64,000 nucleotides of DNA from Nitrosopumilus sp. (GCA_965214775.1 OZ243974.1:1632001-1696000), one strand, 5' to 3'. Positions 1 to 58,417 are shown, counted from the stretch's first letter. Translations and numbers: made by a program. The notes: a model not told the origin generated them from the sequence alone.

Positions 1-533
1 ACATGCTTGCAGACGGGATCTCACCGATGACCCTGCTTGACACCGGCACGAATCCTGATACGCCGGGAAAGATCCTGCTTGCAGACGGCGCATACGGCTC
101 AAGGAAGAACGTAGCCGAGTGCCACAAGCGCGGTATAAAACCACTCATACGGCTTTTGACAAGCTGTAATGCAAGGGGCAAGGGCACCGGCGACAAGTGG
201 GGCATGCTTGTACGGTGGCAGCTTGGGGGCGGCCCCGAGATGCCGGTGGGTGATCTCTCAAAGGAGGAAAGACAGGAGAACCTGCGGTACTCGAAGAGCA
301 CGGTCGGCTTTGGCAGCAGATGGATAGTCGAGATCGTGATATCGTCCATAAAGCGCATGTTCGGCGAGGGCGTAATGGCCCTCAAGTGGTCCAATGTGGT
401 GCAGGAGGTAAAGCTGAGGATATGGCTGTACAACAAGTGAATTGCAGAGGCGGTGGCTGCCATGTAGGAACCTAGTGCCGGTAGTGATCCGGGCGGACTG
501 ACTTGGCTCTAGTCGGAGTTATGCAACAGACTA
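1..533 (+). mobile_element. IS5 family (IS903-like) insertion sequence, right part, running off the window start
   Basis: C-terminal DDE transposase ORF followed by the terminal repeat GAGTTATGCAACAGACTA (516-533), which resembles IS903-group ends; the same end bounds MITE family M1. Confidence 0.8.
3..440 (+). CDS. IS5-family DDE transposase, C-terminal part (partial; possibly a premature stop)
   Basis: LADGAYGS (second Asp) and RWIVEIVISSIKRMFGE (Glu motif); the frame continues IAEAVAAM after the TGA. Confidence 0.8.
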   Translation: MLADGISPMTLLDTGTNPDTPGKILLADGAYGSRKNVAECHKRGIKPLIRLLTSCNARGKGTGDKWGMLVRWQLGGGPEMPVGDLSKEERQENLRYSKSTVGFGSRWIVEIVISSIKRMFGEGVMALKWSNVVQEVKLRIWLYNK

Positions 534-2988: not shown

Positions 2989-3062
2989 GCCTTGGTAGCT
3001 CAGCCCGGTAGAGCGAACGCCTCGTAAGCGTTAGGTCGCGAGATCATAGCTCGCCCAAGGCT
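2989..3062 (+). tRNA. tRNA-Thr(CGT)
   Basis: Acceptor stem GCCTTGG/CCAAGGC, anticodon arm AACGC-CTCGTAA-GCGTT, T arm GCGAG/CTCGC. Confidence 0.92.
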
Positions 3063-3640
3063 TTTGTTTTTGTATGGTTTTCTGTTGCTGCTGCTGCTGC
3101 TGATACGTTGCCAAATTTCATTGTGATGCAGCAGGGGCTGTCGCCCAATTCCGTCTGCTTGACTCAATCTGCACGTTTTTCTGAATTTCTGCCCTTTGCA
3201 TGTCTGATCCACATGGCATCACAACGGTTTTCAGGAATTCTGACGAATTAGGCGGTGACCCCGGGCCACTAGATTCAGTCTGAGAGTCTTGAATTAATGG
3301 AATTTCTTTTTAAAAAACCCCCGATTTTCTTTTTAATTTTATAATCTAGAGCTCGCATTGGCTAGACCCATGCACGGAACGATGGTAGTAGAACAGGCAC
3401 GGAGGGCAGTGGCCTAATGCAGTACCCTTGTTTCTAGTTGGAGTATGTTTTCGTGTCGGGTAATTTGGTTCCATCGTGCTTGATACGAATCAAATTTTAA
3501 TCCATTCTATGAGATCAAAGTCGTTCTTATCATGGAATGCCTTCTCCTATCAAAAACAACGATCAACAAAGAAATATTCTTAAATCATAAAGCCGAACAA
3601 AAATCCTCGTGCAAAACTTTTCTATTTTGGAGGAAGATCC

Positions 3641-5458
3641 ATGAGTCTCTCTGATACTCTTACTAAATATCGTGAGGCACTAGTCGCATCCCAAGATAGA
3701 CAACAAGCGATCTATGATTCAAGAAGCGACAAGGTGGGCGACTTTTACAATTCATTTCTGAACCAGCTTGTCAGAAAATATGAAAACAAGGTAGGAGATA
3801 AGGACTGGGAAAAAAATGTCTTGGATAACTTTAAGAATTTTTTTGGAACTGACAACCCGACATTTGTTGCAGTAGATGGAACCTCTGATAAAATACAACT
3901 AGAAGAATATGCGGTATTTTTTGCAGCATCCTACGGTGTTAAAGGAACGTTCTCGCTAGATGGCAAAAACTCTGTAGAATATGAGAGACGTGATATCCAT
4001 GACGAGCTAAGTATGGTGGCATATGTCCCGATACCCTTTGCAGAATTGGAGGATGTTGATTTTAGCCAGATTGATGATGACAATAGATTCTCCATGATAG
4101 ACATTCACAACCGACTTATGATTTTGGCTGAAATCTATCTTTTGTATAATGAAATCAAATCCGAAAACCATCCAAACATCCTGCTTTGGGACCAGACCTT
4201 TAGTGGAATGTTTCACTGGCGCGCACCTCCCATCAAAGACGTGCCAATGATAATCAATGCCTATGAGCATAATGGCAGAAAGCTTACCATTGCAGATGCA
4301 CTGATTTCCCGTTCACATCCATACAACGCTGACCTTAATACTCCTGCCCCTTCCAAGGGGTTTTTTAACATGCCCAACAGAATTCTTTATGAGCTTTTTA
4401 ATTCCCACACTAGAGAAGCAAAAATCTCAGAGCTTGCGACACTGTTTGGCGAATCTGAGGCAGAACTCAGGCGTGTAATTGAGAGGTTTATCCAAAATCT
4501 AAGGGTCGGAGATGAAATTACAAGTACCAATTGTCTAGAATATGAAAAATCATCAGATGCAATACGTCTGAATCCAAGATACTGGGATTCTTGGGATTTT
4601 GTGGTAGGGCTGGTTGAAAGTCTGTGCACTAAAATCTTTAGTGAGAAAGATGCCAAGGCATTGACCTACTCGGGAAAATGGGTTACAACAGTAGACATTG
4701 ATTTTATGGTATCCATCTTGCTTAGAAAAATTATTGAAATAAGTTGGGAGCAAAATGTTTTGCTAATTGGCGTGGTAAAGGATTCTGCGTCAAAATATTT
4801 TATTCGAAACTATCTTGGCGTGATGAAAAAAGAAAGCCATTATTCTGATTACGAAATACTTGATTTGTACGGTCTTTTGTGGTCTGACAGGCTTACAATG
4901 GAACATCTGCCCATAGAAGATGAGAGTCTTAATGCCCCATGGGCTACAGTGGAATATGACTCTATTTTTCAAATACTGTATCTTTCAACAAAGACTGAAA
5001 CTCAAGAGGCATACATTAGAACAGTCCCGACCTCTGAGAGAATCTTTGCCAGGCATCTGTCACTGTTATTTTCAACAAGACAAAAAGGAAAGGTAATTTT
5101 CAATCATATGTTGTTTGTTGATAGGGCGCTACTTCCAAAATTTGATCTAGGAAAAATTAACAACTATTCAATTCCTGCAAATGCAAACGAGGTTAAGGTA
5201 ACTGTTGATCCTTTTGTTGACCTAAACAGCTCTGAACCCAATGCTGTTCAAGACTTTGTAACCCTGTTTTTACACAACATTACATCCAACAGATTCCCCG
5301 ACGTAATAGGATATCCTGAGCCGTTACACAAGGCAGATCTGGGAGCCAAAACGTTTAATCGAATGGTACAGCCAATGATCCGAAGCAGCACCATGATGTA
5401 TGGCAGAAGCTCAAAACCGTGGTCAAAGTCAATCCGTGCAAAGAGGAAATTCAAGTGA
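3641..5458 (+). CDS. NurA-like nuclease (large, with a possible HTH insertion)
   Basis: FVAVDGT, LLWDQT, LIGVVKDS and C-terminal GYPEPLHKAD match the NurA motif layout; preceded by GGAGG; adjacent to a HerA-like gene. Confidence 0.75.
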   Translation: MSLSDTLTKYREALVASQDRQQAIYDSRSDKVGDFYNSFLNQLVRKYENKVGDKDWEKNVLDNFKNFFGTDNPTFVAVDGTSDKIQLEEYAVFFAASYGVKGTFSLDGKNSVEYERRDIHDELSMVAYVPIPFAELEDVDFSQIDDDNRFSMIDIHNRLMILAEIYLLYNEIKSENHPNILLWDQTFSGMFHWRAPPIKDVPMIINAYEHNGRKLTIADALISRSHPYNADLNTPAPSKGFFNMPNRILYELFNSHTREAKISELATLFGESEAELRRVIERFIQNLRVGDEITSTNCLEYEKSSDAIRLNPRYWDSWDFVVGLVESLCTKIFSEKDAKALTYSGKWVTTVDIDFMVSILLRKIIEISWEQNVLLIGVVKDSASKYFIRNYLGVMKKESHYSDYEILDLYGLLWSDRLTMEHLPIEDESLNAPWATVEYDSIFQILYLSTKTETQEAYIRTVPTSERIFARHLSLLFSTRQKGKVIFNHMLFVDRALLPKFDLGKINNYSIPANANEVKVTVDPFVDLNSSEPNAVQDFVTLFLHNITSNRFPDVIGYPEPLHKADLGAKTFNRMVQPMIRSSTMMYGRSSKPWSKSIRAKRKFK

Positions 5459-5463
5459 TACAA

Positions 5464-7227
5464 ATGTCTGAAAGCTCATTCCGTTCTGAAACTGGAAAAC
5501 TAATGGATGTCAGTTTTGATGAAAACTATGGATACCAGTACACGGTCTGGTTTGACTATACCAAGAAACTTATGCGTCAATTAAAGGCAGGAGATCTTTT
5601 ATCGGTGCCTAATTTCTCATATTCTGACGGTTCTGAGTGTTACAGCATTCTTAGCGCAACTTCGATAATGCCGTTTCACTATGCCACTGCAGGTGACCAA
5701 TTGGCAGGATATCCTGTGTTTTTAGAAAAAACCAGGGACGAGGCGTTCAAAGACTTTCTAAAACAAGACGAGGAATCTTCTGAGGAGACAACCAAAATCA
5801 GGGTAACTGCCGCACCAACCGGACTAGAACTTGTAACGAATCCTTCGATTCATACGCAAGAGGAATCCCAAATGCCTATTTTTGGTGGAGAGGCAAGAAT
5901 TCTTGATGTTGGGTTGGTTGGAAATATTTTCAACAGCGGTTTGGAAAATGAAAAAACCATTACCATTGGCAATCTTAGAAAAGGCGACATTGGCATTGAT
6001 TTGAAAATCGACGATATGATTAGAACCCATATAGGAATTTTTGGATATACTGGAACCGGAAAATCCAATCTTGTCAGCACGCTGGTCCACAAACTTTTGC
6101 AGCAAAGCCAAGTTCCTGTAAATATCGTAATATTTGACTTGATGGGCGAGTACACTGCATTACTTGCAGATGTGTTAGATGAGGTCAATGGTTACATGTG
6201 TTTTCTTGGGAAAGACTCTCTGCCGAATCCAGTCCAAAAATACATGACAGACAAAAAAGATTTGGATCAAGCTCGAGATGCATTTATCCGAAACATGCAT
6301 GTGCCGGCCCCGTTACGAACTTATTCTATGACTGACAAATACCAAAGGATTGTCAAGAATTTGCTCTCTAATGGAAAAATCAAACTGCTTATTGAACAAT
6401 ATGAAACAATAGGTCAATTTTTAGAAGAAAACGTTTCAAAGCATATTTCTTCTCAGGAATCAAAGCAAATGATGGGAAGAATCTTTGGGACTTACAAATC
6501 CAAACCCTTTGAAAAAGCAAACATGGAATCCTTGGTAAACTATCTAAAACAAGAATCATCGAACGTTGAAAAATCAGGCTCACAAACTATTTTGGAGGGA
6601 TGGATTAAAGCTGCAAGCAAGCATTCGGACTTTTTTGAGCCGTTAGATGAGTTCAAAGTGGATAGAAACAAGGATCTGGTAGATCCCCTGCTTGATCAGG
6701 AGAAGGAGGCAAAACCCTCCCTTTACATTGTTCAAAGTGAAGACGAGGATTCCATTCGAAAATTTGCGTATAACATCACGGCCAATCCAAAGCATAGCGT
6801 GTATGCAGAGAGACGCAAAAACGGTCTAAACTCGCCCCTGACTTTGTTTATCTTTGATGAGGCAGACGAATTCATTCCGCAAGACCCATCAGGTACCTAC
6901 AAGCTGTCTACTGAAGCAGTTGAAACTTTAGCCCGAAGAGGAAGGAAGTTTGGTTTGGGTGTTGCAATTGCAACTCAGAGGGTTACATATCTGAATACCA
7001 GTATTATGGCACAACCCCACACATACTTTATCAGCAAGTTGCCTAGGATGTCTGACAGGCAAAGGGTCACTGATGCATTTGGTACGTCTCAAGATGTAAT
7101 GCAGGAGACTTTTAAATTTAGAAAGGGTGATTGGCTGGCAATAAGCCACGATGCCACGGGTTTGAAGTCCGTTCCGATTCCGATTCATAGCGATAATGCT
7201 GAGGCAAGAATTCTTGGCTTGCCATAG
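5464..7227 (+). CDS. HerA/DUF87-family ATPase (FtsK-HerA superfamily)
   Basis: HIGIFGYTGTGKS Walker A, IFDLMGEY, IFDEADEF Walker B, ARRGRKFGLG arginine finger, ATQR; ATG 5464 preferred over GTG 5419. Confidence 0.88.
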   Translation: MSESSFRSETGKLMDVSFDENYGYQYTVWFDYTKKLMRQLKAGDLLSVPNFSYSDGSECYSILSATSIMPFHYATAGDQLAGYPVFLEKTRDEAFKDFLKQDEESSEETTKIRVTAAPTGLELVTNPSIHTQEESQMPIFGGEARILDVGLVGNIFNSGLENEKTITIGNLRKGDIGIDLKIDDMIRTHIGIFGYTGTGKSNLVSTLVHKLLQQSQVPVNIVIFDLMGEYTALLADVLDEVNGYMCFLGKDSLPNPVQKYMTDKKDLDQARDAFIRNMHVPAPLRTYSMTDKYQRIVKNLLSNGKIKLLIEQYETIGQFLEENVSKHISSQESKQMMGRIFGTYKSKPFEKANMESLVNYLKQESSNVEKSGSQTILEGWIKAASKHSDFFEPLDEFKVDRNKDLVDPLLDQEKEAKPSLYIVQSEDEDSIRKFAYNITANPKHSVYAERRKNGLNSPLTLFIFDEADEFIPQDPSGTYKLSTEAVETLARRGRKFGLGVAIATQRVTYLNTSIMAQPHTYFISKLPRMSDRQRVTDAFGTSQDVMQETFKFRKGDWLAISHDATGLKSVPIPIHSDNAEARILGLP

Positions 7228-7553
7228 TTTATAGGAGCCGTTTTACTAGATTGCCAGTCACGCACTGACAGTTTGAATGATTTGCTGAGGGACAGATCTG
7301 ACCATTCAAAAACGTGCTGGATGTTGAAATTTTTTGAAATCCTGGAATAAATTTCTGTTATGGCAAGAATACTTGCAAACCACTGAGGCCTCTTGCTGAC
7401 AATCTGAGCATGTTTTGGCTCTGATTTCTGCGTTTGCTATGTGGTGTTCTTTGGCCCTTTTGTGTATGGTGTTTGTTGGCCGACATAAAGACGGCTTTTA
7501 TTCAAAAGCAGCCATTTGTGAAAATCCTCCCGATCTGCGATCATCGAATCTGA

Positions 7554-7597
7554 CTCGTAAGCGTTCGGACGCCGATTCGCATCCTGTCTGAGGCTTT
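7554..7597 (+). repeat. Degenerate duplicate of the tRNA-Thr(CGT) 3' half (att-like island border)
   Basis: CTCGTAAGCGTT identical to 3021-3032, then an ungapped partial match ending AGGCTTT like 3058-3064. Confidence 0.65.
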
Positions 7598-7793
7598 AAT
7601 AATCATAATTTGGCTTTATAGAAAATTTCAGGGGTTATTCAGTGACAGTCTCAATGTCCGTCTCTAATTCTTTTGGCAAGCCGTCCCACCATTGTTTAGT
7701 TTCTTCAGTCATACTCCCCATTCATTTGCTAGAATTGTCCTTTATAGATCTGTCGGTTGGTTGGGATTTGATCAATTCTTGATAATTTGCAAA

Positions 7794-7985
7794 TTAATCC
7801 CGATCTGTTTTCTCTTCCTGCCTTCTTTTCATCCTTCTATACATGACGATCATCAGTGTGCCGCCTGCACATCCCCAAAACAATGGCGATAATCCCGGTT
7901 CAACGGTTGGCTGAAAAACACCCACAAAACTCAGTGACATGATTACAATTAAAACCAACCCTGAAATTTCAAGCATTTTTGCCAT
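7794..7985 (-). CDS. Small membrane protein with two predicted TM helices
   Basis: Two hydrophobic segments and a basic C-terminal tail. Confidence 0.6.
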   Translation of the reverse strand: MAKMLEISGLVLIVIMSLSFVGVFQPTVEPGLSPLFWGCAGGTLMIVMYRRMKRRQEEKTDRD

Positions 7986-8043
7986 GGCACTGAAATCAAC
8001 TGTGAAATCAAAAAGATATATGGTTTTGTAAACAGTCTAATTT

Positions 8044-8256
8044 ATGGACAAATATCTTACAGTAATCCTGATTTTTATGATGGTTGGAGTCCCGATCTCA
8101 TTTATCTCGCCTACGACTGGCGAATTAAGAGAAGATCCTCTATACCTGTTGTTTTATGCCTCTATTGGAGGAATGTGTTTTATAGTCGTTTATGGCTCAT
8201 ACAAAGACAGGGTAGAGCGCCAAAAGCGAAATGCTAGGAGAAGATCTGGGAAATAG
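8044..8256 (+). CDS. Small membrane protein with two predicted TM helices
   Basis: Two hydrophobic segments and a basic tail; divergent from its neighbour. Confidence 0.65.
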   Translation: MDKYLTVILIFMMVGVPISFISPTTGELREDPLYLLFYASIGGMCFIVVYGSYKDRVERQKRNARRRSGK

Positions 8257-8262
8257 TCGTAA

Positions 8263-8383
8263 CAGGCCCCCCGGGTTCTGGAAGCTCAGGCACGAATTTT
8301 GTCGCCAATGAGCGCCGATCAAATGGAATCTGTGCCTGAAATCAATGCATGCATCATCAGAAACGACCTTCAGAACTCATCAG
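8263..8383. mobile_element. MITE-like repeat, family M8
   Basis: Reverse-complement match to 11871-11985; imperfect terminal repeats around GTTCTG(G)AAG. Confidence 0.65.
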
Positions 8384-8536
8384 TTATGTTTTATTTCATG
8401 TTTTATGAAAAGGCAAACAGCGATCACATCTTGCTGATTTTTAGAGTGCATAAAGATTCAGAAAGACTCTGGAATGTTTGTGGATAATGCTGTACGCGAC
8501 GGCAGCCTTTTTAATTACATGCCTGTAGAGCCTGCC

Positions 8537-9940
8537 ATGATTAGACGCTTTTCCGCAGCAGGACTCTTTCTTGTTCTGGCTGTAGTGGCCCTTACTGCCA
8601 CCGCGTACGCAGAGGTGCCGCCCCCACCGCTAAAGCAGCTTGCAGCCGGCGTCTCTCCGGAGGATGTTTTGTGCAGGGAGGGGCTCGCGCTGGTCGTGCG
8701 TGGCGCCGATGACGCCATATGTGTGAGGGGGGAGACTGCCGAAAGGATGGGGTGGACTATAACCGTGCCAGATGCCGGCGCCGCCGAGTCCACGCGCCTG
8801 CTGCTGCAGGCCGGCGGCCTGATACCCGCCGAGATTTTAGACTATTCTGGGATCGTGACAGCAAACAACGGCTTTGCAGTCGACTTTTACTCCCGCGCCG
8901 CCGGGCAGGAGGGCCAAAACATCGTATTCTCGCCGTGGAGCATCTTCGGCGCCTTTGCACTCGCACACGAGGGGGCGGGGGGAGACACGAGGGACGAACT
9001 CACCGACGTGTTTGGATTTCCGGAGGAAAAGCGCACGCAGTTTGGCTCGGCAATGGCGGATCTGAACAGGCCCGACGCCGAGTACAGGCTGTCGGTTGCA
9101 AACGCGCTGTGGCTGGCAGAGTGGCTCGAGCCGCTAAAGGAGTACGTGCAGACTGCAAAAATACACTACGACAGCGGCGTGGAGAAGGTAAACTTTGGAT
9201 CCGGTGACACAGTCAAGACGATTAATGGATGGGTGTCAGATAACACCGGCGGCAAGATAGACGAGGTTCTGGCGCCTGGCTCCGTCGACGGCGCAACGGC
9301 TATGGTCATAACAAACGCAGTATACTTCAAGGGCGACTGGGTGAACACGTTTGACGAGTCTGCAACCATCGAGGACGACTCGTTCTGGGTGACCCCAGAC
9401 AAAAGGGTGGCAGTCCCGATGATGTACGCAAAGGAAGTCTACAGGCACGCAGACGTGGGCACGCACCAGGTCCTTGAGATGCCGTACGTGGGCGACCGTA
9501 TCTCCATGCTTGTGCTGCTGCCAAACGAAAAGGGCGGGATAGGCGAGCTAGAGGGGATGCTGAGCGCCGAGAGCCTCGAGGAGTGGAGGGGGGATCTTGT
9601 AGGTAAAAAACTGCAGGTCTATTTCCCAAAATTCAACCTTGATGTCTCGTACGACCTAAGATGGGATCTGTCGGCGATGGGCGTGACCTCGCTCTTTGAA
9701 GGGACAGCAGACCTTTCTGGCATCGCCGGCGAGGACGTGCAACTGTACGTGTCTAAAGCAATCCACAAGGCGTTCATAAACGTAAACGAAAAGGGGACGG
9801 AGGCAGGCGCTACGACTGCAATAGTAGCTACATCATCAGGGCCTCCGGCGTTTGTAGCAGACCACCCGTTTGTCTTTGTCATACAGGACACGGAGACGGG
9901 CAACATACTGTTCATCGGAAGGCTGTCTGACCCGTCCTAG
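8537..9940 (+). CDS. Secreted serpin with an N-terminal PPLKQ/Cys extension domain
   Basis: Signal peptide, NIVFSPWS, NAVYFKGDW, hinge EKGTEAGATT, FVADHPFVFVI, ILFIGR; GC-rich relative to flanks; ORF track start is 8474. Confidence 0.93.
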   Translation: MIRRFSAAGLFLVLAVVALTATAYAEVPPPPLKQLAAGVSPEDVLCREGLALVVRGADDAICVRGETAERMGWTITVPDAGAAESTRLLLQAGGLIPAEILDYSGIVTANNGFAVDFYSRAAGQEGQNIVFSPWSIFGAFALAHEGAGGDTRDELTDVFGFPEEKRTQFGSAMADLNRPDAEYRLSVANALWLAEWLEPLKEYVQTAKIHYDSGVEKVNFGSGDTVKTINGWVSDNTGGKIDEVLAPGSVDGATAMVITNAVYFKGDWVNTFDESATIEDDSFWVTPDKRVAVPMMYAKEVYRHADVGTHQVLEMPYVGDRISMLVLLPNEKGGIGELEGMLSAESLEEWRGDLVGKKLQVYFPKFNLDVSYDLRWDLSAMGVTSLFEGTADLSGIAGEDVQLYVSKAIHKAFINVNEKGTEAGATTAIVATSSGPPAFVADHPFVFVIQDTETGNILFIGRLSDPS

Positions 9941-9961
9941 GGGAATGGGATCCTGAATAAT

Positions 9962-10792
9962 TTAACAAGAATTTCTTCTAGCTATTTCGTCAATGATGAT
10001 CCTTAACATTGATCTAAGATCGCTGCCCTCTGAATAATCATTTGAATACATCCCATAATTAGTTCGTCTTCCTCTTGCAAGCTCATATGTTTTCTTTGGT
10101 GTATCCGCCATTATTCCAATACAATGTCCGCCATTACTTCGTACTGCAGAAAAACATGGAATATCACTAGGCCCGTCCCCTATGTAGATCATGTTTCTAA
10201 ACGGTATTCTTCTTTGTTCACTCTTTACTGCATCATTTACTAAATACGGATATTTGCGTAGATTTTCCTTGTCTATTCCTTTGTTGATTGCATAAAGATA
10301 TTTTGTTTTTTCTGTAAATGTGACTGTTGATTGTATTGCGTAATATTTTTCCGTTTTAGGATCTACACTATAATTAGATGCCAAAACATCTTTGAATTGT
10401 TTTGCAAATGAACAGCATTTTACAAGATCTTCTATTCCAGCTGAAATTATGTATCCCTCAACATTGATTCCAGATTTTATACATTCGGAATTATTTGAGA
10501 CATGCCTCTGCAGTTCTTTAATGAACGAGTCTGCTCCTTTGTATGGCTTGATTTTTTTTGCAAGGTCATGCATTTTCTGAGGGGTATTTTGTTTAATTTT
10601 TCCATCATTCATTAACTTTAAAATCTTATGAAGATATGCCTGAGGTGGATCCCAGCCCTTTTGAACAAAATTTCGATCAATGTCATTCCAAAAATCATCT
10701 AGTTTGATTCCATTTTCCTCAAGCAAAAAGTTAGTTGTGTCATGAGCTAAAGTATCATCACAGTCACAAATTATGGCTATCGTGTTATGCAT
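9962..10792 (-). CDS. HAD-superfamily hydrolase
   Basis: Motif I DCDDTL, IISAG, conserved Lys in TEKTKYL, motif IV YIGDGPSD; AT-rich. Confidence 0.85.
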   Translation of the reverse strand: MHNTIAIICDCDDTLAHDTTNFLLEENGIKLDDFWNDIDRNFVQKGWDPPQAYLHKILKLMNDGKIKQNTPQKMHDLAKKIKPYKGADSFIKELQRHVSNNSECIKSGINVEGYIISAGIEDLVKCCSFAKQFKDVLASNYSVDPKTEKYYAIQSTVTFTEKTKYLYAINKGIDKENLRKYPYLVNDAVKSEQRRIPFRNMIYIGDGPSDIPCFSAVRSNGGHCIGIMADTPKKTYELARGRRTNYGMYSNDYSEGSDLRSMLRIIIDEIARRNSC

Positions 10793-10891
10793 ATTGACAA
10801 AAAGAACGCTTGCAATAAAAAATGATCCCATGAAAAATAGGCTTTAGATTTTGCGCAATCTATGTGTTATGCCGAAATTATTTCGCCTAGC

Positions 10892-11064: not shown

Positions 11065-11233
11065 GGGAGCTGATTCAAAATCAGCAGATTCGGATCATGT
11101 ATAAACAAATTTGTACTATCAAATCGAGTAAAACGCCTGCAAATGACTAGTTATTTGTATATAATCTGCTTGACAAGCGTACAGAAAAATCCGGACGTTG
11201 ATTTACACGGCTTTTAATTTTGAATCATCTCTG
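11065..11233. mobile_element. MITE, family M4
   Basis: Ends GGAGCTGATTCAAAAT / ATTTTGAATCATCTCT; homologous to 17100-17262. Confidence 0.7.
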
Positions 11234-11409
11234 TGGGACTTGTTGCCTAGGTGCAGTAAACCGTGCCAACGCTGAACAATTGGCATAAGAAGGCACTTGT
11301 CTAAAGAATAACCCCAGCTAAATCAAAATCAATTCTAACACACTGATGAAAAAATCAAACATTCGAGAAGACAATGTTAAGATTCTAAAACGTGCAAAAA
11401 TCAAACAGA

Positions 11410-11530
11410 CAGTCTTCCCAGAAGTACGTGATTCATGACTGTGCAGATGGCGGCGGGCGAATCTGTAGTTATCATAATTTGATTTGTTTCAAATCTGGGG
11501 CCGTTTTCTGGGTTACCTCTGGGAAGACTG
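11410..11530. mobile_element. MITE, family M6
   Basis: Terminal repeat CAGTCTTCCCAGA with 6-bp target duplication AACAGA; homologs at 12453-12570 and 40294-40418. Confidence 0.85.
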
Positions 11531-11550
11531 AACAGAGAAATAATTCTTAT

Positions 11551-11643
11551 GTATGAGGTCACCTACCCCTGCCAATCAGGCACGAATTGACATCTATGAC
11601 TATGATTTTCACACCTAGTCAACAGGGGGACGTGACCACATAC
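11551..11643. mobile_element. 93-bp MITE, family M3 (IS66-like signature)
   Basis: Ends GTATGAGGTCAC / GTGACCACATAC with 8-bp target duplication ATTCTTAT; homolog at 26187-26279. Confidence 0.88.
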
Positions 11644-11763
11644 ATTCTTATCTGTAAATGAAGAAAATAGATAAATCTCTAATAAAAAGTCTAAAAATAT
11701 GAAACTAGAAGATTGGGATTGCTGGATAAACAAAATGCCCGAAACAGAACATCCTAATGCCAT

Positions 11764-11841
11764 AGGCCTTGTGCGTAATCGGTGTAGATCAAGAAAATCA
11801 GGCAGCGCTTACGTCATTTTTGGCAAATACGCATAAAGTCT
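11764..11841. mobile_element. 78-bp MITE, family M2 (ISL2-type ends)
   Basis: Ends match AGACTTTATGCGTAAT of the full IS; 3-bp target duplication CAT. Confidence 0.85.
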
Positions 11842-11870
11842 CATGTATAAAAAAAGCTAAAAATGCGTAA

Positions 11871-11985
11871 CTGGTGAGTTCTGAAGGTCGTTTCTGATGA
11901 TGTATGCATTGATTTCAGGCACAGATTCCATTTGATCGGCATTCGTTGGTGACAAAATTTGTGCCTGATCTTCCAGTCCGACCTG
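11871..11985. mobile_element. MITE-like repeat, family M8
   Basis: Inverted copy of 8263-8383. Confidence 0.65.
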
Positions 11986-11998
11986 TTACAGATAATCC

Positions 11999-12280
11999 CT
12001 ATAGTTCTAAACCAAAAGACTCTGCGATACTTGAGAACTTTACATAAGAATCCAAGTACTGCCTTCCTTTTGAAGTGATGACAAAAGTGTTTTTTCCATC
12101 AAACTCGATCTTATTGATAAGGCCTGCACCAGTCAGGTTTTCCAAGAATTTTGATAACCTTGAATGTGAAAGATTGGCTTTTGTCAAAAGTGATGTGGTT
12201 TTGATGCCTTCCTGTCCTGATTGTTCTGTTGCAGTAAGCAAGTCTGCTACAATCCGCACACTTGTACGATAGGAAACCAT
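11999..12280 (-). CDS. Winged-helix transcriptional regulator (archaeal type)
   Basis: YRTSVRIVADLL, TTSLLTKANLSHSRL, FVITSKGRQYL; start placed at MVSYRT. Confidence 0.85.
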   Translation of the reverse strand: MVSYRTSVRIVADLLTATEQSGQEGIKTTSLLTKANLSHSRLSKFLENLTGAGLINKIEFDGKNTFVITSKGRQYLDSYVKFSSIAESFGLEL

Positions 12281-12452
12281 GTGTAATGTCATATAAAACC
12301 CCGATATAAGGGTATTACCCCTAACCGCCAGGGTGAAATGTGCCAAAAAATCAAGTAAAAACAGAAAACTAGGCAAGAGGCACGACGCCTCAAATAGCCG
12401 ATGATAACAAGACAGTAGCGATCTTTTGATTCGCATCTCATTAGCGGTAAAG

Positions 12453-12570: not shown

Positions 12571-12625
12571 CTGTGGCCTAAAATAATTCAGATCAGATAA
12601 ATAAGCTCCTGTCTGATTTTTGACC

Positions 12626-13222
12626 ATGTCTTCTTCACAATCATCAATTCCCTGGTTTGATGAATTTATAGGCGTAGCATACCGATATTTTGACCTTAGA
12701 ATGAATGTAGTTCCGTTATTTACTGATCAAAAAGAGTCCCTGAACCTGTGGAGAGATGTGATTCATTGGTGGGTTGACCCATCAATTAAAATCCGCTTTG
12801 TTGAAACAGGCGACGATTATTGGTTCATCATGGGTTCTGATTCGCAAAAACAGGAGACCAATATCTCAATGTACAAACTGTTGCCAAAGTCTGTACATTA
12901 TGAACGATTCAAGAAAGGCCATGGCGGAGAGGCATACCTCAGATTTGGGGTATATACTAAAAAAACCCTGGAAAACTCAAAAAAAGACACCATGTGCGAT
13001 TGCGGTCATGATGCAGCTGACCATGATGAAAACGACGGCGATGCTTGCCTGTACAATACCTGCGATTGCAAGAAATTTTCCAGTTTCCAGGTTAATTTGC
13101 TCAAAAGAAAAAAAACAATTACCGACATTAAATTTCTAGGCGAAGAAAATGTTAAAGACGACGTTCTTGCATGGAATTGTCTGAACGTTAACAAATACCA
13201 TCCCAAAACAGAACAAAGCTAG
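12626..13222 (+). CDS. Hypothetical protein with a Cys/His metal-binding insert
   Basis: Long ORF with backbone-like composition; CDCGH-x4-H...C-x4-CDC motif. Confidence 0.75.
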   Translation: MSSSQSSIPWFDEFIGVAYRYFDLRMNVVPLFTDQKESLNLWRDVIHWWVDPSIKIRFVETGDDYWFIMGSDSQKQETNISMYKLLPKSVHYERFKKGHGGEAYLRFGVYTKKTLENSKKDTMCDCGHDAADHDENDGDACLYNTCDCKKFSSFQVNLLKRKKTITDIKFLGEENVKDDVLAWNCLNVNKYHPKTEQS

Positions 13223-13546: not shown

Positions 13547-15298
13547 TTACAACAAATTGCTAGTCAGCTTTCGTAGTGCCAGCATCTCGTCTTCTTCCTG
13601 CCTGATTTTCTTATCAATTACACGAAGCATTGTATCATTCCATACATGCTGTGAGAAGAAGTTGTGTTTTGTATTTGCCAACTCTATCTCGTCATCAACA
13701 ACCGTGTCTTCAAGAAACTTGGTTACGATGACATCCGTCAATCTTAGAATTCTGGAATTGAGTTTTAAGCTACGAAAAATCGGCTCTAGTCTTCTAATGT
13801 CTACCTTGAAATCCCCCTTTGACTCTAGAATTTTTTTGTACAGTATTCTGAAATAGACTGCCACAAAAAACAGCGTTGCATACCTCTTGGTTTTATGCCC
13901 TCCCTGCTTTCCGTACTTTAACGATTTTTTTGCGTATTCTTTTACAAGATACGGATACAGCAAAATCCTGTAATCATCTTTTAGGTTGTCATTGAAGATA
14001 TCATCATACTTGCTTCCACGTGGCAAAAACTGTGACGGCGAACTATATGCCTCTGTAGGCCTCTGCTCAATCCCGGCAACTAGCGACTGAATTGCATCTT
14101 TTGCAACAATTACTTTTTTGTGATTGTCAGGAAGATACGCGTTGTATGTTGAATCGCCCTCGTACTCGCATTGCCTGGACTTGGTTTTTGTATCAAACGA
14201 ACCTGCCTGGATTTCATAAAAGTAGCCGCAGTTTCTCAGTTGGGATTTTATTGACTTGTGAAAATCCATCAGTGAAACCAGGTCTTTTCCTCTTACAGAG
14301 TTTTGAGAATTTCTGTATTTTGTAATGTTGTTTTGCTCTTGCTCATCGTCGGCCTTGATGATTGTTACTGTCATTGAGCCATCCATGTTTTTGGTCCGCT
14401 TGGAATGGTCTAAAATTGAGTTTGATGTCTGTGCGCCGTTTACAATTTGAGGGGCATGCAATTTGATAAAGTTATCGCCCAACTCTTCAAAATCGCTAAC
14501 AACAATGGTGATGCCATTGTTATAATAGAAAAATTTTTCCGGATTGCTTTGCAAGGTTTCTCTTAATCCCTTGTTGACGGTGGTTTTGAACTGCATCCAC
14601 TGCCTGATGTTTGATTCAAAAACATAATCCCTGTTTTTACTCACAAACTCCGTAAGCTCCCTGAGTTTTAAGATTCCCAAAATGGTGTTTTCGTGTCTTA
14701 GCATTCGCTCTAACTTGATTGACGATTTTTTTCCTGCCGCAGGTTTTTTTATTCTGTCCCATAACCTCTGAATGATTCTCTCTCCGTCAATTATCTCGAC
14801 TAGGCTGTCTTCATACTCTACCTTTTGATCAGTAACATAGCAGCACTTGATCTTCAGATTTTTTTCCTTGATCTTTGTAACTAGCTGCGCTAGTTCCGGT
14901 CTCATCTTTGTAACATCTCTTGATAACAGGCGTTTTACATCTTCCTTGAATTTTGCAATTGCTTCAAGGCAATGTGATGTGCCGTATTTTGACTGGAACA
15001 ATCTGATTGTGTCGTCTGAAAAATCTACGGGAAGGTACGCATCAATTCCCAGATCGTTGGCACCATCTACAATTGCATCTGCTGCATCGTCCTCAGTTGC
15101 TTCAAAAACCCTGGTTAGCACCCAGTGCAAAAAATTATTTCCTTTCTCAACCTCGTTTTTGGCACTTTTGGCATAATCTTTGATGCTTTCTTGGATGTTT
15201 TCTGAAAATCCCTCTAGCGGAGGAGACGTGTTTTTCTGAATTAATAGTGAGTGAGAGCCCGGTATGTATTCTAGTAATCCGTTTCCGTTTTGAGACAA
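13547..15298 (-). CDS. AIPR-family protein
   Basis: DGANDLGIDA, FQSKY, FESNIR, FFYYNNGITIV, QIVNGAQT, NSQNSV. Confidence 0.9.
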   Translation of the reverse strand: MSQNGNGLLEYIPGSHSLLIQKNTSPPLEGFSENIQESIKDYAKSAKNEVEKGNNFLHWVLTRVFEATEDDAADAIVDGANDLGIDAYLPVDFSDDTIRLFQSKYGTSHCLEAIAKFKEDVKRLLSRDVTKMRPELAQLVTKIKEKNLKIKCCYVTDQKVEYEDSLVEIIDGERIIQRLWDRIKKPAAGKKSSIKLERMLRHENTILGILKLRELTEFVSKNRDYVFESNIRQWMQFKTTVNKGLRETLQSNPEKFFYYNNGITIVVSDFEELGDNFIKLHAPQIVNGAQTSNSILDHSKRTKNMDGSMTVTIIKADDEQEQNNITKYRNSQNSVRGKDLVSLMDFHKSIKSQLRNCGYFYEIQAGSFDTKTKSRQCEYEGDSTYNAYLPDNHKKVIVAKDAIQSLVAGIEQRPTEAYSSPSQFLPRGSKYDDIFNDNLKDDYRILLYPYLVKEYAKKSLKYGKQGGHKTKRYATLFFVAVYFRILYKKILESKGDFKVDIRRLEPIFRSLKLNSRILRLTDVIVTKFLEDTVVDDEIELANTKHNFFSQHVWNDTMLRVIDKKIRQEEDEMLALRKLTSNLL

Positions 15299-15372
15299 CT
15301 TACTCCTCTAATATGCTATATATTTAGAGAGTTTGGTAATTATGTAATAACTCAACCAGGTATGAAAAAAAT

Positions 15373-15798
15373 ATGCTGAAAAAAGTATCCATTGTGGGAG
15401 GAGGAGTGGCACTGATTACAATTTCAACAGTCATGATTGCCGCAGCTGCCCTGGGAAGTTATTCTGTTGATGAGTCCGTCAAAGAGACGGAGCCTGTTGT
15501 AAATGCAGATGTGATAATGCCCACAAAAGTTTCAAGGCCTGGGTGTGAGAAAGCCGATAGATGTTATGTTCCGTCTGAGATGACTGTTGAAAAAGGCAGA
15601 GCTGTTACGTGGCTAAACGAGGATTCTGCATTTCACAGCGTGACATCTGGTCTGTATGACGCTCCCACTGAACTGTTTGATAGTGGACATCTTGGCCCGT
15701 CTGAGTCATTTTCGTACACGTTTGCCGAGTCTGGAGTTTATGACTATTATTGTACCTTGCATCCGTGGATGGAGGCACAGGTGATGGTAGTTGAGTAA
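15373..15798 (+). CDS. Cupredoxin (plastocyanin/azurin-like blue copper protein)
   Basis: N-terminal anchor, HSVTSG and YYCTLHPWM copper ligands. Confidence 0.9.
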   Translation: MLKKVSIVGGGVALITISTVMIAAAALGSYSVDESVKETEPVVNADVIMPTKVSRPGCEKADRCYVPSEMTVEKGRAVTWLNEDSAFHSVTSGLYDAPTELFDSGHLGPSESFSYTFAESGVYDYYCTLHPWMEAQVMVVE

Positions 15799-15801
15799 GC
15801 A

Positions 15802-15873
15802 AGGTGCCCGAGGGAGTCGAACCCCCTTGTATAGGCTTTGCAGGCCCACGCATAACCGTTCTGCCAGAACACC
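15802..15873 (-). tRNA. tRNA-Cys(GCA)
   Basis: Minus-strand cloverleaf GGTGTTC...GGGCACCT, anticodon loop CTGCAAA, T loop TTCGACT. Confidence 0.92.
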
Positions 15874-15912
15874 GTTTTGAAAAAAACAAGGTGAACAATT
15901 AAACCCTTTAGA

Positions 15913-16134
15913 TTAGAACTTGCTGAACGATTTTGAGGCCAATTTGACGTCTTCTCCCTTGACAGTCTTTCTGCCTGCATGAGATGACAAGTCAACGGCA
16001 TTTTTTGCAATACTGTCTGCAACCTCTTCGATCACCCTTCTTAGTTCGTCAGCAGATTCGTCACTGACTCTTTGGGCCCCGGCTTTTTTCAAAATTCTAT
16101 ACATTGCTGAAAGTCCCAGTTCTGATGATTTCAT
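15913..16134 (-). CDS. Archaeal histone (HMf-like)
   Basis: RILKKAGAQRVS...HAGRKTVKGEDV histone-fold signature. Confidence 0.93.
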   Translation of the reverse strand: MKSSELGLSAMYRILKKAGAQRVSDESADELRRVIEEVADSIAKNAVDLSSHAGRKTVKGEDVKLASKSFSKF

Positions 16135-16229
16135 AAAATTTCATCTGTTTTTTTTCGGAAAAACATAAAGAGTGAAAAAATATCACCAAGGAATCGATTT
16201 ATACAGACAATTTGCACAATTAACAAGAC

Positions 16230-16991
16230 ATGACATGGTATTTTGATTCTCATATTCATCTGTCTGACCCCCAATATGCCCCGGAAATCGGTCATATCTT
16301 AAAACAAATGGAGATTCTAAAAATAAAGGCATGCTGTGTTTCGATGGACAATGAGACATCACTGGCCACGTTGAATTTGGCAAAAACAAACAACAACCAT
16401 GTCATGCCATTTGTTGGAATCCATCCTGAACGTGCTGATGACTGCCTTGAGTCAATGGTGGGTCTGATTGAAGAAAACCATGAAACTATTGCCGGGATAG
16501 GCGAAATAGGATTGGATCCCAATTATGTTGCAAACGGTGATGATGATTTTTCCAGACAAACCAAAGTCTTTGAAACATTACTGAGGCTTTCTGAAAAATA
16601 CAAAAAGCCCGTATCAATTCATTCTAGAAAAAGCCTGGAGAAGATATTTGAAATCATGACCTCCTATGATGTCTCGCATGCGTTATTGCATTGGTTTGAT
16701 GGAAGCAAAAAGGATCTCTCTACGGCAATGGACATGGGATTCTATGTATCTTATGGCCCTGTAATGATTTATGCAAATGACAAGCAGACACTGCTCTCAA
16801 AGACTGACTCGTCAAAAATTCTGGTAGAAACTGATGGGCCAGTCAGATTTTCCAGATGTTTTGAAATGAAATCTGGCCAAATCAGCTTTATTCCAAGCGT
16901 CATTTTTTGTGCTGCTGAAATTCTTGGAAAATCCTTTGATGAAATGAGCTCCATTCTGGAAAAGAACTCTAGATCGTACCTGGGAATATAG
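16230..16991 (+). CDS. tatD: TatD-family nuclease
   Basis: DSHIH, GIHP, GIGEIGLD, IHSR, LHWF, LVETDGP. Confidence 0.92.
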   Translation: MTWYFDSHIHLSDPQYAPEIGHILKQMEILKIKACCVSMDNETSLATLNLAKTNNNHVMPFVGIHPERADDCLESMVGLIEENHETIAGIGEIGLDPNYVANGDDDFSRQTKVFETLLRLSEKYKKPVSIHSRKSLEKIFEIMTSYDVSHALLHWFDGSKKDLSTAMDMGFYVSYGPVMIYANDKQTLLSKTDSSKILVETDGPVRFSRCFEMKSGQISFIPSVIFCAAEILGKSFDEMSSILEKNSRSYLGI

Positions 16992-17008
16992 AGACACAAG
17001 TCAAAAGC

Positions 17009-17096
17009 CAGTGCGCACAGTTGAAATCTGGACATTTTTTATCAAAATAGGCACGATATGTCAAAATTACGATCCGTTTTTTTGATGTGCGCACTA
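17009..17096. mobile_element. 88-bp MITE, family M5
   Basis: Ends CAGTGCGCACA / TGTGCGCACTA; homologs at 29984, 32486 and 42892. Confidence 0.8.
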
Positions 17097-17099
17097 TAT

Positions 17100-17262
17100 G
17101 AGAGTTGACTCAAAATCAGCAAAATTCGGATCATGTGTAAACAGACCTGGCATCAAATCGATTAAAACGCCTGCAGATGACAACCTGTCTGCATGTAAGA
17201 TTATCTGAGAAGCGTACGGAAAAACCCGGGCACTTGCAGTTTCTTATTTTGGATAATCTCTC
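17100..17262. mobile_element. MITE, family M4
   Basis: Ends GAGAGTTGACTCAAAAT / ATTTTGGATAATCTCTC; homolog of 11065-11233. Confidence 0.7.
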
Positions 17263-17289
17263 ATGGTGCACCATGTTCGGAAAAATTCA

Positions 17290-17560
17290 GGATATTTGTG
17301 GACAATGTGTCATACCGCCACAAGTCAAGGAAGAAGGCAAGAGGCACCAGAGGAATTTGACGGTAACATAATGCCTGCTGGAATGCCTGCTGCCCTACAC
17401 GCCGGGGCTGAACCCAATTGAGATAAAGTGGAGGCAGATAAGACGCGCGTTTTCTGCAAGAAGGTCTTTGATACGCTTGAGGATCTGGAGCAGTCCGTAC
17501 GAAGACTTTGATAAAAAGACGATTGTACCCGTGAGAACATTCCAGTATTTGATGTGCTAA
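17290..17560 (+). pseudogene. IS630-like transposase C-terminal relic
   Basis: Fragment reads LLPYTPGLNPIEIKWRQIRR, then after a frameshift VFDTLEDLEQSV; boundaries approximate. Confidence 0.7.
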
Positions 17561-17568
17561 CTACAGAC

Positions 17569-17708
17569 TAGTTTGTTGCATAACTTCTTTTTTCGTCAAA
17601 AAACTCCTGATTTCGATCACAGATAGATCCGAACTCAACTGTGGTTTTTATCTGGATTTGTCGTTTAGGACGAATTCGAGTAAAAAAATCGAGTTATGCA
17701 ACAAACTA
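17569..17708. mobile_element. 140-bp MITE, family M1 (IS903-like ends)
   Basis: Terminal inverted repeat TAGTTTGTTGCATAACT, matching the IS end at 516-533. Confidence 0.88.
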
Positions 17709-17719
17709 TGCCTTTGTAC

Positions 17720-17842
17720 ACACTTAATAACCACGCATAATTTAGCCATAATATTAGAATGAGTGTCTTACATGCTGTCGTGGTGCAGGACATCCCTGCC
17801 AAAGTTCCCCTGATCGCTTGGGGGGGGGGTGACCTGCCGTAG
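17720..17842 (+). promoter_or_regulatory. Putative promoter, 27-aa upstream ORF and G10 tract/hairpin in front of giant gene 1
   Basis: TTAATAA 17724-17730, ATG 17759, CCCC-loop-G10 (17820-17829), stop at 17842; homologous to 43132-43249. Confidence 0.5.
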
Positions 17843-17889
17843 CTCTGACACAAAGCCCGTCCCGCAGGGCTCCTGTAGGTGCTGCCTCC

Positions 17890-43249: not shown

Positions 43250-43465
43250 TGGTGGATCGACCAAAGGGTGTTGGCCAGAATCGCCACTGCGGCCTGAAGG
43301 TCGGCAGCAGCAGGATTGCCACGGACGCGGCACTCGGTTTCTATTTTCGGATCACTTCTCAGGTGCAGGTACGCGGGGCGGGGGAGCCCATGCGTCCTGC
43401 GGTCGGATGTTTTTGCGGGACGCCGTCAACTGCAGACAGTCCCGCGGAAGGGGGGAGGCATACTC

Positions 43466-58400: not shown

Positions 58401-58417
58401 GGCGACTGCGGGCCTAA
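43466..58417 (+). CDS. Giant cell-surface protein 2 (~4983 aa): 6 LVIVD-like propellers with Ig-like spacers, Big_9/He_PIG-like units, 11 DUF5011-like Ig repeats, 1 Venus-flytrap domain, PEPV stalk, CFI-box-CTERM
   Basis: GGAGG 7 nt before ATG 43466; signal peptide; repeats as in gene 1; PVITLNG..ELG..Y...GAT repeats at 53250-55830; C-terminus near-identical to gene 1. Confidence 0.9.
57875..58042 (+). repeat. In-frame 12-bp tandem repeat x14 (PEPV/PEPQ stalk)
   Basis: CCAGAACCCGTA and CCAGAACCGCAG units. Confidence 0.92.

Follow-up and report, generated by a model that had tools for sequence, protein, structure and literature searches.

Two genes in an islet downstream of tRNA-Thr(CGT)

A stretch of 64,000 nucleotides from Nitrosopumilus sp. 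(GCA_965214775.1 OZ243974.1:1632001-1696000), here called the window, was analysed around a small islet that follows a tRNA-Thr(CGT) gene. The islet holds only two large genes, one for a NurA-like nuclease, P0001, and one for a HerA-like translocase (Table 1). Both open reading frames (ORFs) are intact, and 5 nucleotides separate the stop codon of the nurA-like gene from the ATG of the herA-like gene. An initial annotation of this DNA, made from the sequence alone, had described two large genes 5 bp apart, bounded by the tRNA gene and a decayed, ungapped copy of its 3' half, and all of these features are present. It had also proposed that the pair is a specialised, horizontally acquired nuclease–translocase module and a candidate defence system.

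Table 1. Features of the islet, numbered from the first nucleotide of the window.
Feature	Position	Strand	Basis or remark
tRNA-Thr(CGT)	2989-3062	+	ARAGORN; Rfam tRNA 57.2 bits
Left repeat (attL), 3' half of tRNA-Thr(CGT)	3021-3062	+	Probably supplied by the element
Left spacer, non-coding, 578 bases	3063-3640		Holds a dispersed repeat resembling a miniature inverted-repeat transposable element (MITE-like), 3134-3264
NurA-like nuclease P0001, 605 amino acids	3641-5458	+	Pfam match below threshold, AlphaFold2 (AF2) fold, invariant residues
HerA-like hexameric translocase ATPase, 587 amino acids, ATG start at 5464	5464-7227	+	Pfam DUF87, AF2 fold
Right spacer, non-coding, 326 bases	7228-7553		Without an ORF of at least 60 amino acids
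attR, decayed original 3' half of tRNA-Thr, from the anticodon loop onward	7554-7597	+	Alignment to relatives

Insertion of the islet into the tRNA gene

At the right end of the islet, 28 of the 42 nucleotides at 7554-7595 are identical to the tRNA 3' half at 3021-3062, without a gap and with the first 12 nucleotides exact. When both strands of the 2.83-Mb genome were searched for other matches of at least 26/42, we recovered the query itself, a site at 282889 (30/42) that is presumably another tRNA gene, and the tRNA-Thr(TGT) gene of the window (27/42); all remaining sites reached 25 or fewer. The decayed copy agrees with the tRNA-Thr 3' halves of several relatives of the same genus at 34 of 42 positions, and the present 3' half agrees with those of the 22 relatives compared at 31-38 of 42. 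In one relative, L106, the tRNA 3' half aligns with window positions 7554-7597 and the downstream flank with 7598-8260, base for base, after which the alignment jumps to 12003. Because the decayed copy is closer to the relatives (34/42) than to the tRNA of its own genome (28/42), and because it is collinear with the tRNA half and flank of a relative, it is a real copy and, as these alignments show, the displaced original 3' half of the tRNA gene.

The gene to the left of the tRNA is of the phosphoglucomutase (PGM) type and has an orthologue in 29 of the 30 other same-genus genomes searched. The order PGM–tRNA-Thr(CGT) is kept in 27 of these 29 loci; of the remaining two, L110 stops where the PGM gene does. 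Among the 23 relatives with at least about 1.4 kb of sequence past the tRNA, 19 have some 650 nucleotides there and then orthologues of the window genes at 11999-12436 and 12620-13222. An empty tRNA-Thr site in relatives, which the initial annotation had put forward as a check, was found in this way, and with the direct repeat of the 3' part of the tRNA at its far end the islet carries both marks of a tRNA-integrated island. Two single metagenome contigs that link position 3040 to ~7735, in the manner of an empty site, add a weak hint, their matching sides being just 20-25 nucleotides long.

The islet (3063-7553) is best explained as what is left of an integrative element that entered the tRNA-Thr(CGT) gene and has lost its integrase. 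An element with a tRNA-like attachment site would have recombined inside the tRNA gene, given it a new 3' half and left the old one to decay 4.5 kb farther downstream. The T-arm of the present tRNA-Thr(CGT), GCGAG ATCATAG CTCGC, differs from the GGGTTC(A/G)... T-arms seen in all 27 relatives, which fits a foreign origin of the 3' half. The absence of mre11, rad50 and an integrase from the islet, as first annotated, was borne out: no Phage_integrase (PF00589) match lies within ~231 kb of it, the only matches in the genome being at 534, 1401 and 2805 kb, and other recombinase families were not searched. Neither spacer holds a significant remnant of an integrase, DpdA, DUF6884 or other gene from the neighbourhoods of related pairs (861 queries, best E 0.004).

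The only ORF of at least 60 amino acids in the left spacer (3000-3212, minus strand) has no Pfam match. The MITE-like element of ~130 nucleotides in this spacer has inverted-repeat-like ends and no Rfam match. A BLASTN search of both spacers against the own genome returned at least 100 rows including self; the 59 non-self rows listed are 76-89% identical and lie on both strands. Contig depth spikes and loose ends at 3139-3252 were seen in four metagenome runs. Promoters and terminators, scanned for with bacterial consensus sequences, were not in excess.

The nuclease has the NurA fold with large additions

At the sequence level P0001 remains below the Pfam cut-off for NurA (PF09376; 16.1 bits against 21, E 0.0079, residues 361-409 only), and a precomputed match to this family was found for only 2 of 78 homologues. 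A profile built from 22 sequences of the family matched no PDB sequence, including those of NurA and TdpAB. An AF2 model of the protein (predicted local distance difference test, pLDDT, 85.4; predicted template modelling score, pTM, 0.87) was compared with solved structures, and all ten of the top ten Foldseek matches were NurA. A second structural alignment (VIA) paired the model with NurA of S. solfataricus (2ygk) at a Z score of 21.9 and a root-mean-square deviation of 3.5 Å over 312 of 319 residues. Further matches were the Thermococcus and Pyrococcus NurAs (Z 14-16; other NurAs Z 12-16), chain 8wfd_G of TdpAB (Z 14.3), and Argonaute and EndoV (~Z 10). By the fold of its model, P0001 is clearly a NurA, with an RNase H-like core and large inserts. 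As the core in 2ygk comprises 319 residues, about half of the 605 residues of P0001 are additions to it.

One addition, at about residues 244-295, shows in the AF2 model the order helix-strand-helix-helix-strand-strand, as in a winged helix. A winged-helix-like insert would fit the helix-turn-helix-like (HTH-like) insert of the initial annotation. It is the least conserved part of P0001 among 22 aligned members, and a protein-atlas search with residues 236-345 was uninformative, giving one match (score 0.75) to an unnamed archaeal cluster. The same 22 homologues share D79 (AVDGT), E164, D184 (WDQ), D381 (KDS), H563, D566 and the motif GYPxPLHxAD without exception, in a comparison made within the family. 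An exhaustive search of 1.84 billion proteins returned 213 representative clusters at E <=0.001, 50 of them at <=1e-30. The homologues are 590-630 residues long and align end to end (78 matches). Relative to a copy 76-77% identical, nonsynonymous divergence (dN) is ~0.15 and synonymous divergence (dS) is saturated (at least 1.9), for a ratio of ~0.05-0.08, which is a rough sign of purifying selection on the pair.

The second gene encodes a HerA-like translocase

Membership of the second protein in Pfam DUF87 (PF01935) is clear from a score of 77.6 bits against a cut-off of 23.2 (1.9e-21). Its Walker A motif reads GYTGTGKSN and its Walker B motif FDEADEF. Walker A (GxxGxGKS), FDEAD, RRGRK and ATQR are invariant in 20 HerA homologues, and the window's copy keeps all of them. 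Together with the invariant nuclease motif and the length range of the homologues, this alters how the initial annotation is to be read: the size of 605 residues, the HTH-like insert, the ending GYP..AD and the Walker B sequence DEADE are all present as described, but they are traits of the whole family rather than oddities of this copy.

The AF2 model (pLDDT 84.8) shows a full-length HerA. VIA aligned it with S. solfataricus HerA (4d2i) at Z 27.6 over residues 8-583, which covers the full HerA fold including the N-terminal barrel. HerA from an antiphage complex (8xau), DUF4297-HerA, SIR2-HerA, TdpA (Z 26.4) and Thermococcus HerA followed at Z 25-27.4, and because these scores are tied (Z 25-27.6) the fold cannot separate repair HerAs from defence HerAs. 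TrwB and VirB4 scored Z 20-22, below the full-length HerAs. In PADLOC the protein matches PDLC01055, 'HerA, Type III coevolved' (3.7e-75, model positions 7-523 of 532). Scores against the NCBIfam equivalogs were far below their cut-offs, with 62.7 bits against 970 for helicase_HerA, and 73.5 and 69.1 bits against 800 and 850 for two antiphage HerAs.

A separate repair cluster is present in the same genome

The initial annotation had called for a search for a separate repair operon, and one was found. At C1:184-193 kb, a canonical NurA (278 amino acids) is followed by HerA (510 amino acids) and then by an Mre11-like phosphoesterase and Rad50, so the islet pair is not the only copy in the genome, in which DUF87 was matched five times and NurA once above threshold. 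BLASTP detected no similarity between the islet NurA and the canonical NurA (E 1.8), and the two HerAs are alike only in their ATPase motifs (26-42% identity). The canonical NurA ends GYPYALKLAH and the canonical HerA has EEAH as Walker B, the usual forms against which the initial annotation had set those of the islet genes. The islet pair thus lacks what would mark a housekeeping system, namely linkage to mre11 and rad50 and similarity at the equivalog level.

The canonical cluster itself is split between herA and mre11 by an IS630-like element. In locus L007 (C1:176001-195000), NurA occupies 8034-8870 and HerA 8867-10399, followed by a 173-residue ORF, a DDE_3 transposase (11113-12099), the Mre11-like gene (13690-14829) and Rad50 (14826-16895). 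A second transposase fragment, with the HTH part only, lies at L007 6018-6656.

Among 25 same-genus genomes searched (our own, G000, and 24 others), the islet pair occurs in two, at different loci. The second holder, L008, has it at 62% identity about 1.5 kb from a tRNA-His gene, far from its own PGM–tRNA-Thr locus, and no repeat of tRNA-His was found downstream of the pair there. The initial annotation had named three outcomes that would speak against its proposal, namely grouping with the core repair clade, being the genome's only copy, and synteny at this site in all relatives; the data contradict all three. The insertion, the empty site in relatives and the accessory distribution support horizontal acquisition of the pair and, with it, the proposal of a specialised nuclease–translocase module.

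The two genes form a fixed unit across archaea and bacteria

When one genome was scanned for each prokaryotic species, 63 loci were recovered, in Nitrososphaerota and several further archaeal phyla as well as in many phyla of bacteria. In 62 of them the next gene downstream of the NurA-like gene is HerA-like, and the contig of the 63rd ends at this point; the pair is therefore a fixed two-gene unit. A metagenome scan added just two short contigs (L079 and L080), almost without flanking sequence. A more distant NurA-like family (L073-L078, from six other families of the order; ~22-25% identity, ~610 amino acids) was also observed, in 6 of 16 genomes searched from other families of the same order, with a HerA-like gene adjacent in all five loci that extend far enough. 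Large NurA–HerA pairs may be widespread in Nitrososphaerota.

DNA-modification genes are the usual neighbours

Clustering of 861 neighbouring ORFs gave one recurrent partner family, which Pfam assigns to TGT-like proteins and/or DUF6884. The latter is distantly related to YaaA/DUF328, to which DpdC belongs, according to passages on this domain in two papers (PMC11701544, PMC12839542). A DpdA-like and/or DUF6884 gene is present in 38 of the 63 loci and adjoins the pair in 34, often with a spacing of -3 to +22 nucleotides. This count was obtained with home-made profiles and includes two loci added by hand, and 15 of the 25 loci without a partner have less than 1.5 kb of sequence on at least one side. 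The arrangement varies between DUF6884 upstream and TGT downstream, a fused TGT-DUF6884 gene downstream (archaea), and a fused DUF6884-TGT gene upstream (Latescibacterota). The bacterial TGT-like proteins match the PADLOC model for DpdA at 1e-98 to 1e-130, and the archaeal fused forms at just 1e-8 to 1e-12. For DUF6884 there is a match to the candidate-system model PDC-M57A and a weak one to DpdC. Genes for the preQ0 pathway or salvage (QueC, PTPS, Vut_1, Q_salvage) lie near the pair in some loci; DpdB was not found among the neighbours scanned.

A C5 cytosine methylase adjoins the pair in five further loci, including three other thaumarchaeal ones that also hold a type II restriction-modification pair, bringing the total linked to DpdA/DUF6884 or a DNA methylase to 43 of 63. 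In a cyanobacterial locus (L042) the pair lies between DndB (8528-9622, minus strand) upstream and a DpdJ-like helicase of 1656 residues (13652-18622, plus strand) downstream, and in Methanoculleus (L037, 15209-18563, minus strand) a Sir2-HerA pair stands directly beside the NurA-HerA-DpdA unit. Other defence genes among the neighbours are Fic, AbiEi, ParE, a DarT-associated NADAR antitoxin, TIR, Sir2-HerA, AIPR, Uma2 and type II and III restriction-modification genes. The defence role first proposed for the islet is still a matter of inference, and these family-wide neighbourhoods strengthen it; the most informative among them, the modification genes, are absent at the islet itself.

A maximum-likelihood tree of 69 nucleases, calculated with a quick search and midpoint rooting and containing some long branches, cuts across taxonomy; Methanosarcina, for example, groups with Patescibacteria. 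The nuclease of the window falls in a clade of 13 (100% support in the Shimodaira–Hasegawa-like approximate likelihood ratio test, SH-aLRT), sister to archaeal DpdA-linked pairs (99% SH-aLRT). Linkage to DpdA is present in both halves of the tree, and DNA-modification enzymes are the usual and probably the ancestral partners of the family.

The copy in the window is an orphan. Its genome encodes no DpdA-like protein and no DUF6884, and the sole TGT is a 512-residue protein of the housekeeping type 940 kb away. The combination that defines a Dpd system, DpdA and DpdC encoded with restriction genes, is accordingly missing from this genome, and is found in 38 of the 63 related loci.

Comparison with known systems

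With the archaeal repair HerA–NurA (2ygk, 4d2i; T. kodakarensis complex 9x1m) the islet pair has in common both folds, the adjacency of the genes, the Walker A and B motifs and a motif of the GYP type. It differs in a NurA that is twice as long, contains the winged-helix-like insert and has no sequence similarity to the NurA of its own genome, in motifs that read GYPxPLHxAD instead of GYP..L..AH and DEAD instead of EEAH, and in a patchy, mobile distribution, with no linkage to mre11/rad50 and scores far below the NCBIfam equivalog cut-offs. The antiphage pairs Sir2-HerA and DUF4297-HerA likewise consist of HerA and an effector and have similar HerA folds (Z 25-27). The effector of the islet is a NurA nuclease, however, and its HerA scores ~70 bits against the 800-850 required for membership of those systems.

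TdpAB (8wfd, 8wet) also combines a HerA-like ring (Z 26.4) with a NurA-like nuclease (Z 14.3) in a DNA-modification-based system, although it has no relation to P0001 at the sequence level, and its partner is tdpC with phosphorothioate, where the family of the pair has DpdA/DUF6884 or a C5 methylase. TdpAB is the restricting part of TdpABC, and the logic proposed here for the family is the same. For tdpABC, PMC12914056 describes a phosphorothioate system whose modification is the work of tdpC alone. For the Dpd system, sections of PMC10164549 report that DpdA and the ATPase DpdB put preQ0 into DNA, that DpdC converts it to the amido form, and that DpdD-K restrict in Salmonella. Relatives of the islet pair adjoin bona fide DpdA and DpdC-like DUF6884, and in one locus DpdJ; NurA and HerA are not, however, among DpdD-K. 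Beside type III CRISPR cassettes, HerA and NurA were noted as clusters 57 and 58 by Shah et al. 2018, in the portion of that study that treats these clusters (PMC6546367). The islet HerA matches the corresponding HerA model over its full length, but the pair falls outside this group, with no match to a NurA model and no cas neighbourhood either here or at the 63 loci.

By its modelled structures, the pair is a member of the NurA and HerA superfamilies, and the linkage of its family to modification genes is the new point. A link of NurA or HerA to DpdA or 7-deazaguanine was not found in the literature covered, which leaves out subscription journals and supplements. The closest published system is a HerA/FtsK-TGT-BREX-like one, described without NurA in the passages devoted to it (PMC12839542).

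Other genes of the window

The islet is followed by what appears as a second insertion relative to L106 (8257-11990), since the L106 equivalent of the ORF at 8044-8256 stands directly before the orthologue of 11999-12436. This segment contains a G+C-rich (52-62%) serpin gene (8474-9940; Pfam 3e-109) and, at 9962-10831 on the minus strand, a match to the PADLOC candidate defence model PDC-S34 (2e-56). An abortive-infection gene of the AIPR/AbiU type (13547-15298, minus strand; Pfam 1e-59, PADLOC AbiU 2e-48) adjoins tRNA-Cys(GCA) (15802-15873, minus strand). Both the PDC-S34-like and the AbiU/AIPR gene lie within 8 kb of the islet, and the 13 kb between the two tRNA genes, with three further candidate defence or foreign genes, looks like a defence hot spot. 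Elsewhere in the window, two giant ORFs (17890-26043 and 43316-58417; 2717 and 5033 amino acids) with internal tandem repeats of 156, 243 and 468 nucleotides probably encode surface proteins, and a DDE_Tnp_1 transposase fragment (3-440, plus strand) lies at the left edge in a G+C-rich (57%) patch.

A probable role in defence and its alternatives

By analogy with the HerA–NurA and TdpAB complexes, we infer that the NurA-like and HerA-like proteins form one machine, in which a HerA ring powered by ATP would pass double-stranded DNA on to the nuclease. In the linked loci, this motor-nuclease would destroy DNA without the mark set by the DpdA/DUF6884 or methylase partner. Because an orphan copy that used the same logic would kill its host, a mark-independent mode is to be expected in the orphan clade. 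Such a machine might attack free DNA ends, which are a feature of the broken DNA on which repair HerA–NurA acts and are absent from a circular chromosome, or it might recognise its target through the variable winged-helix-like insert. Our preferred reading is that the islet pair is the cargo of an integrated element and belongs to a motor-nuclease family that does the restricting in modification-based defences against viruses and plasmids, present here as a mark-independent orphan; we put its probability at about 0.6. For the family as a whole, comparison of neighbourhoods makes defence the most likely, and a probable, function. More tentatively, the family could be the restriction engine of an undescribed 7-deazaguanine restriction-modification type (DpdA-like, DpdC-like DUF6884, NurA and HerA, without DpdB or DpdD-K) that spread horizontally through a dozen or more phyla of archaea and bacteria, with the thaumarchaeal clade shedding the modification genes to become a stand-alone DNA-degrading defence that is independent of modification or senses it.

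Several points weigh against the preferred reading. The modification genes that accompany the family are missing at the islet, where a defence role is guilt by association, and if the family restricts unmodified DNA the orphan copy should be toxic, so that the orphan clade must work differently. The only relative of the same clade with visible context, L008, is also without DpdA and DUF6884, its neighbours including two transposases and, on the opposite strand, a class I methyltransferase; the context of the clade rests on this locus, as the 11 closest metagenomic homologues (46-83% identity) enter without neighbourhoods. P0001 has no match in NCBIfam or in PADLOC, NurA models included, and two peptide patterns found no relative in a viral contig collection. 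The selection estimate is rough because dS is saturated, and a search of sequencing runs listed no RNA run with the islet. Finally, HerA could assist modification in the DpdA-linked loci, in the way that the ATPase DpdB assists DpdA in the account given in part of PMC10164549. Even so, the invariance of the presumed nuclease site argues that DNA would be cut in any case.

Other explanations were considered alongside. An accessory paralogue for DNA repair or recombination, that is, another machine for end resection, serving as a back-up or a specialised version of the housekeeping NurA–HerA–Mre11–Rad50 set and with no role against foreign DNA, would account for the two repair-enzyme folds, for an own canonical cluster interrupted by an IS630-like transposase, and for the MutS, MutL, RecQ, DprA and Mre11-like genes near the pair in a few relatives. 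We consider it unlikely: the pair occurs in only 2 of 25 same-genus genomes searched, at differing loci, and came in by insertion into a tRNA gene, and the incongruence of the tree with taxonomy, the linkage to modification in 43 of 63 loci, the company of defence genes and the lack of an adjacent mre11 or rad50 in the window all point elsewhere. Alternatively, a dead integrative element could have left the pair behind as inert or decaying cargo, with open genes of no use to the host. The missing integrase, the decayed right repeat, the host's dispersed repeat in the spacer, the absence of the usual modification partners and the lack of a listed RNA run would all agree with this, but both ORFs are of full length and keep every family-invariant residue. 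The right repeat has diverged from the present half at 14 of 42 positions and from the relatives at 8 of 42, which indicates an old insertion whose genes are still intact. With dN/dS far below 1 across the clade and a near-identical islet in the sequencing runs of several studies, we rate inert cargo as improbable.

The pair might also serve the mobile element itself, as a HerA/FtsK-type pump whose nuclease takes part in transferring, packaging or replicating element DNA. In favour of this, a tRNA-integrated element carries the pair as its sole cargo, and such ATPases resemble conjugation coupling proteins and VirB4 in fold (Z 20-22 to TrwB and VirB4). We give this little credence, as no sets of conjugation, capsid or replication genes were found among the scanned neighbours at the 63 loci, the viral contigs held no relative, and HerAs outscore TrwB and VirB4. 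An accessory nuclease–helicase module of type III CRISPR-Cas is disfavoured and very improbable. It takes its appeal from PDLC01055, a model that goes back to Shah et al. 2018 (cluster 57) and that the islet HerA matches over its full length; P0001 has no such counterpart in PADLOC, a Pfam scan of 179 neighbour proteins (36 + 143) revealed no cas gene, and CRISPR-array-like repeats occur in only 2 of the 63 loci. In the own genome, Cas1 lies ~790 kb away, no Cas10 was detected with TIGR02577 or TIGR02578, and the part of the genome around the window holds no CRISPR-like array.

Few defences have been characterised in ammonia-oxidising archaea. In the preferred reading, the orphan poses the question of how a motor-nuclease with mark-dependent relatives spares a host chromosome that carries no mark. 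If the reading of the family is true, NurA–HerA coupled to 7-deazaguanine insertion would link HerA–effector pairs with modification-based defence, two fields of active study, and Dpd-type modification would gain a compact four-gene form, parallel to TdpAB for phosphorothioate.

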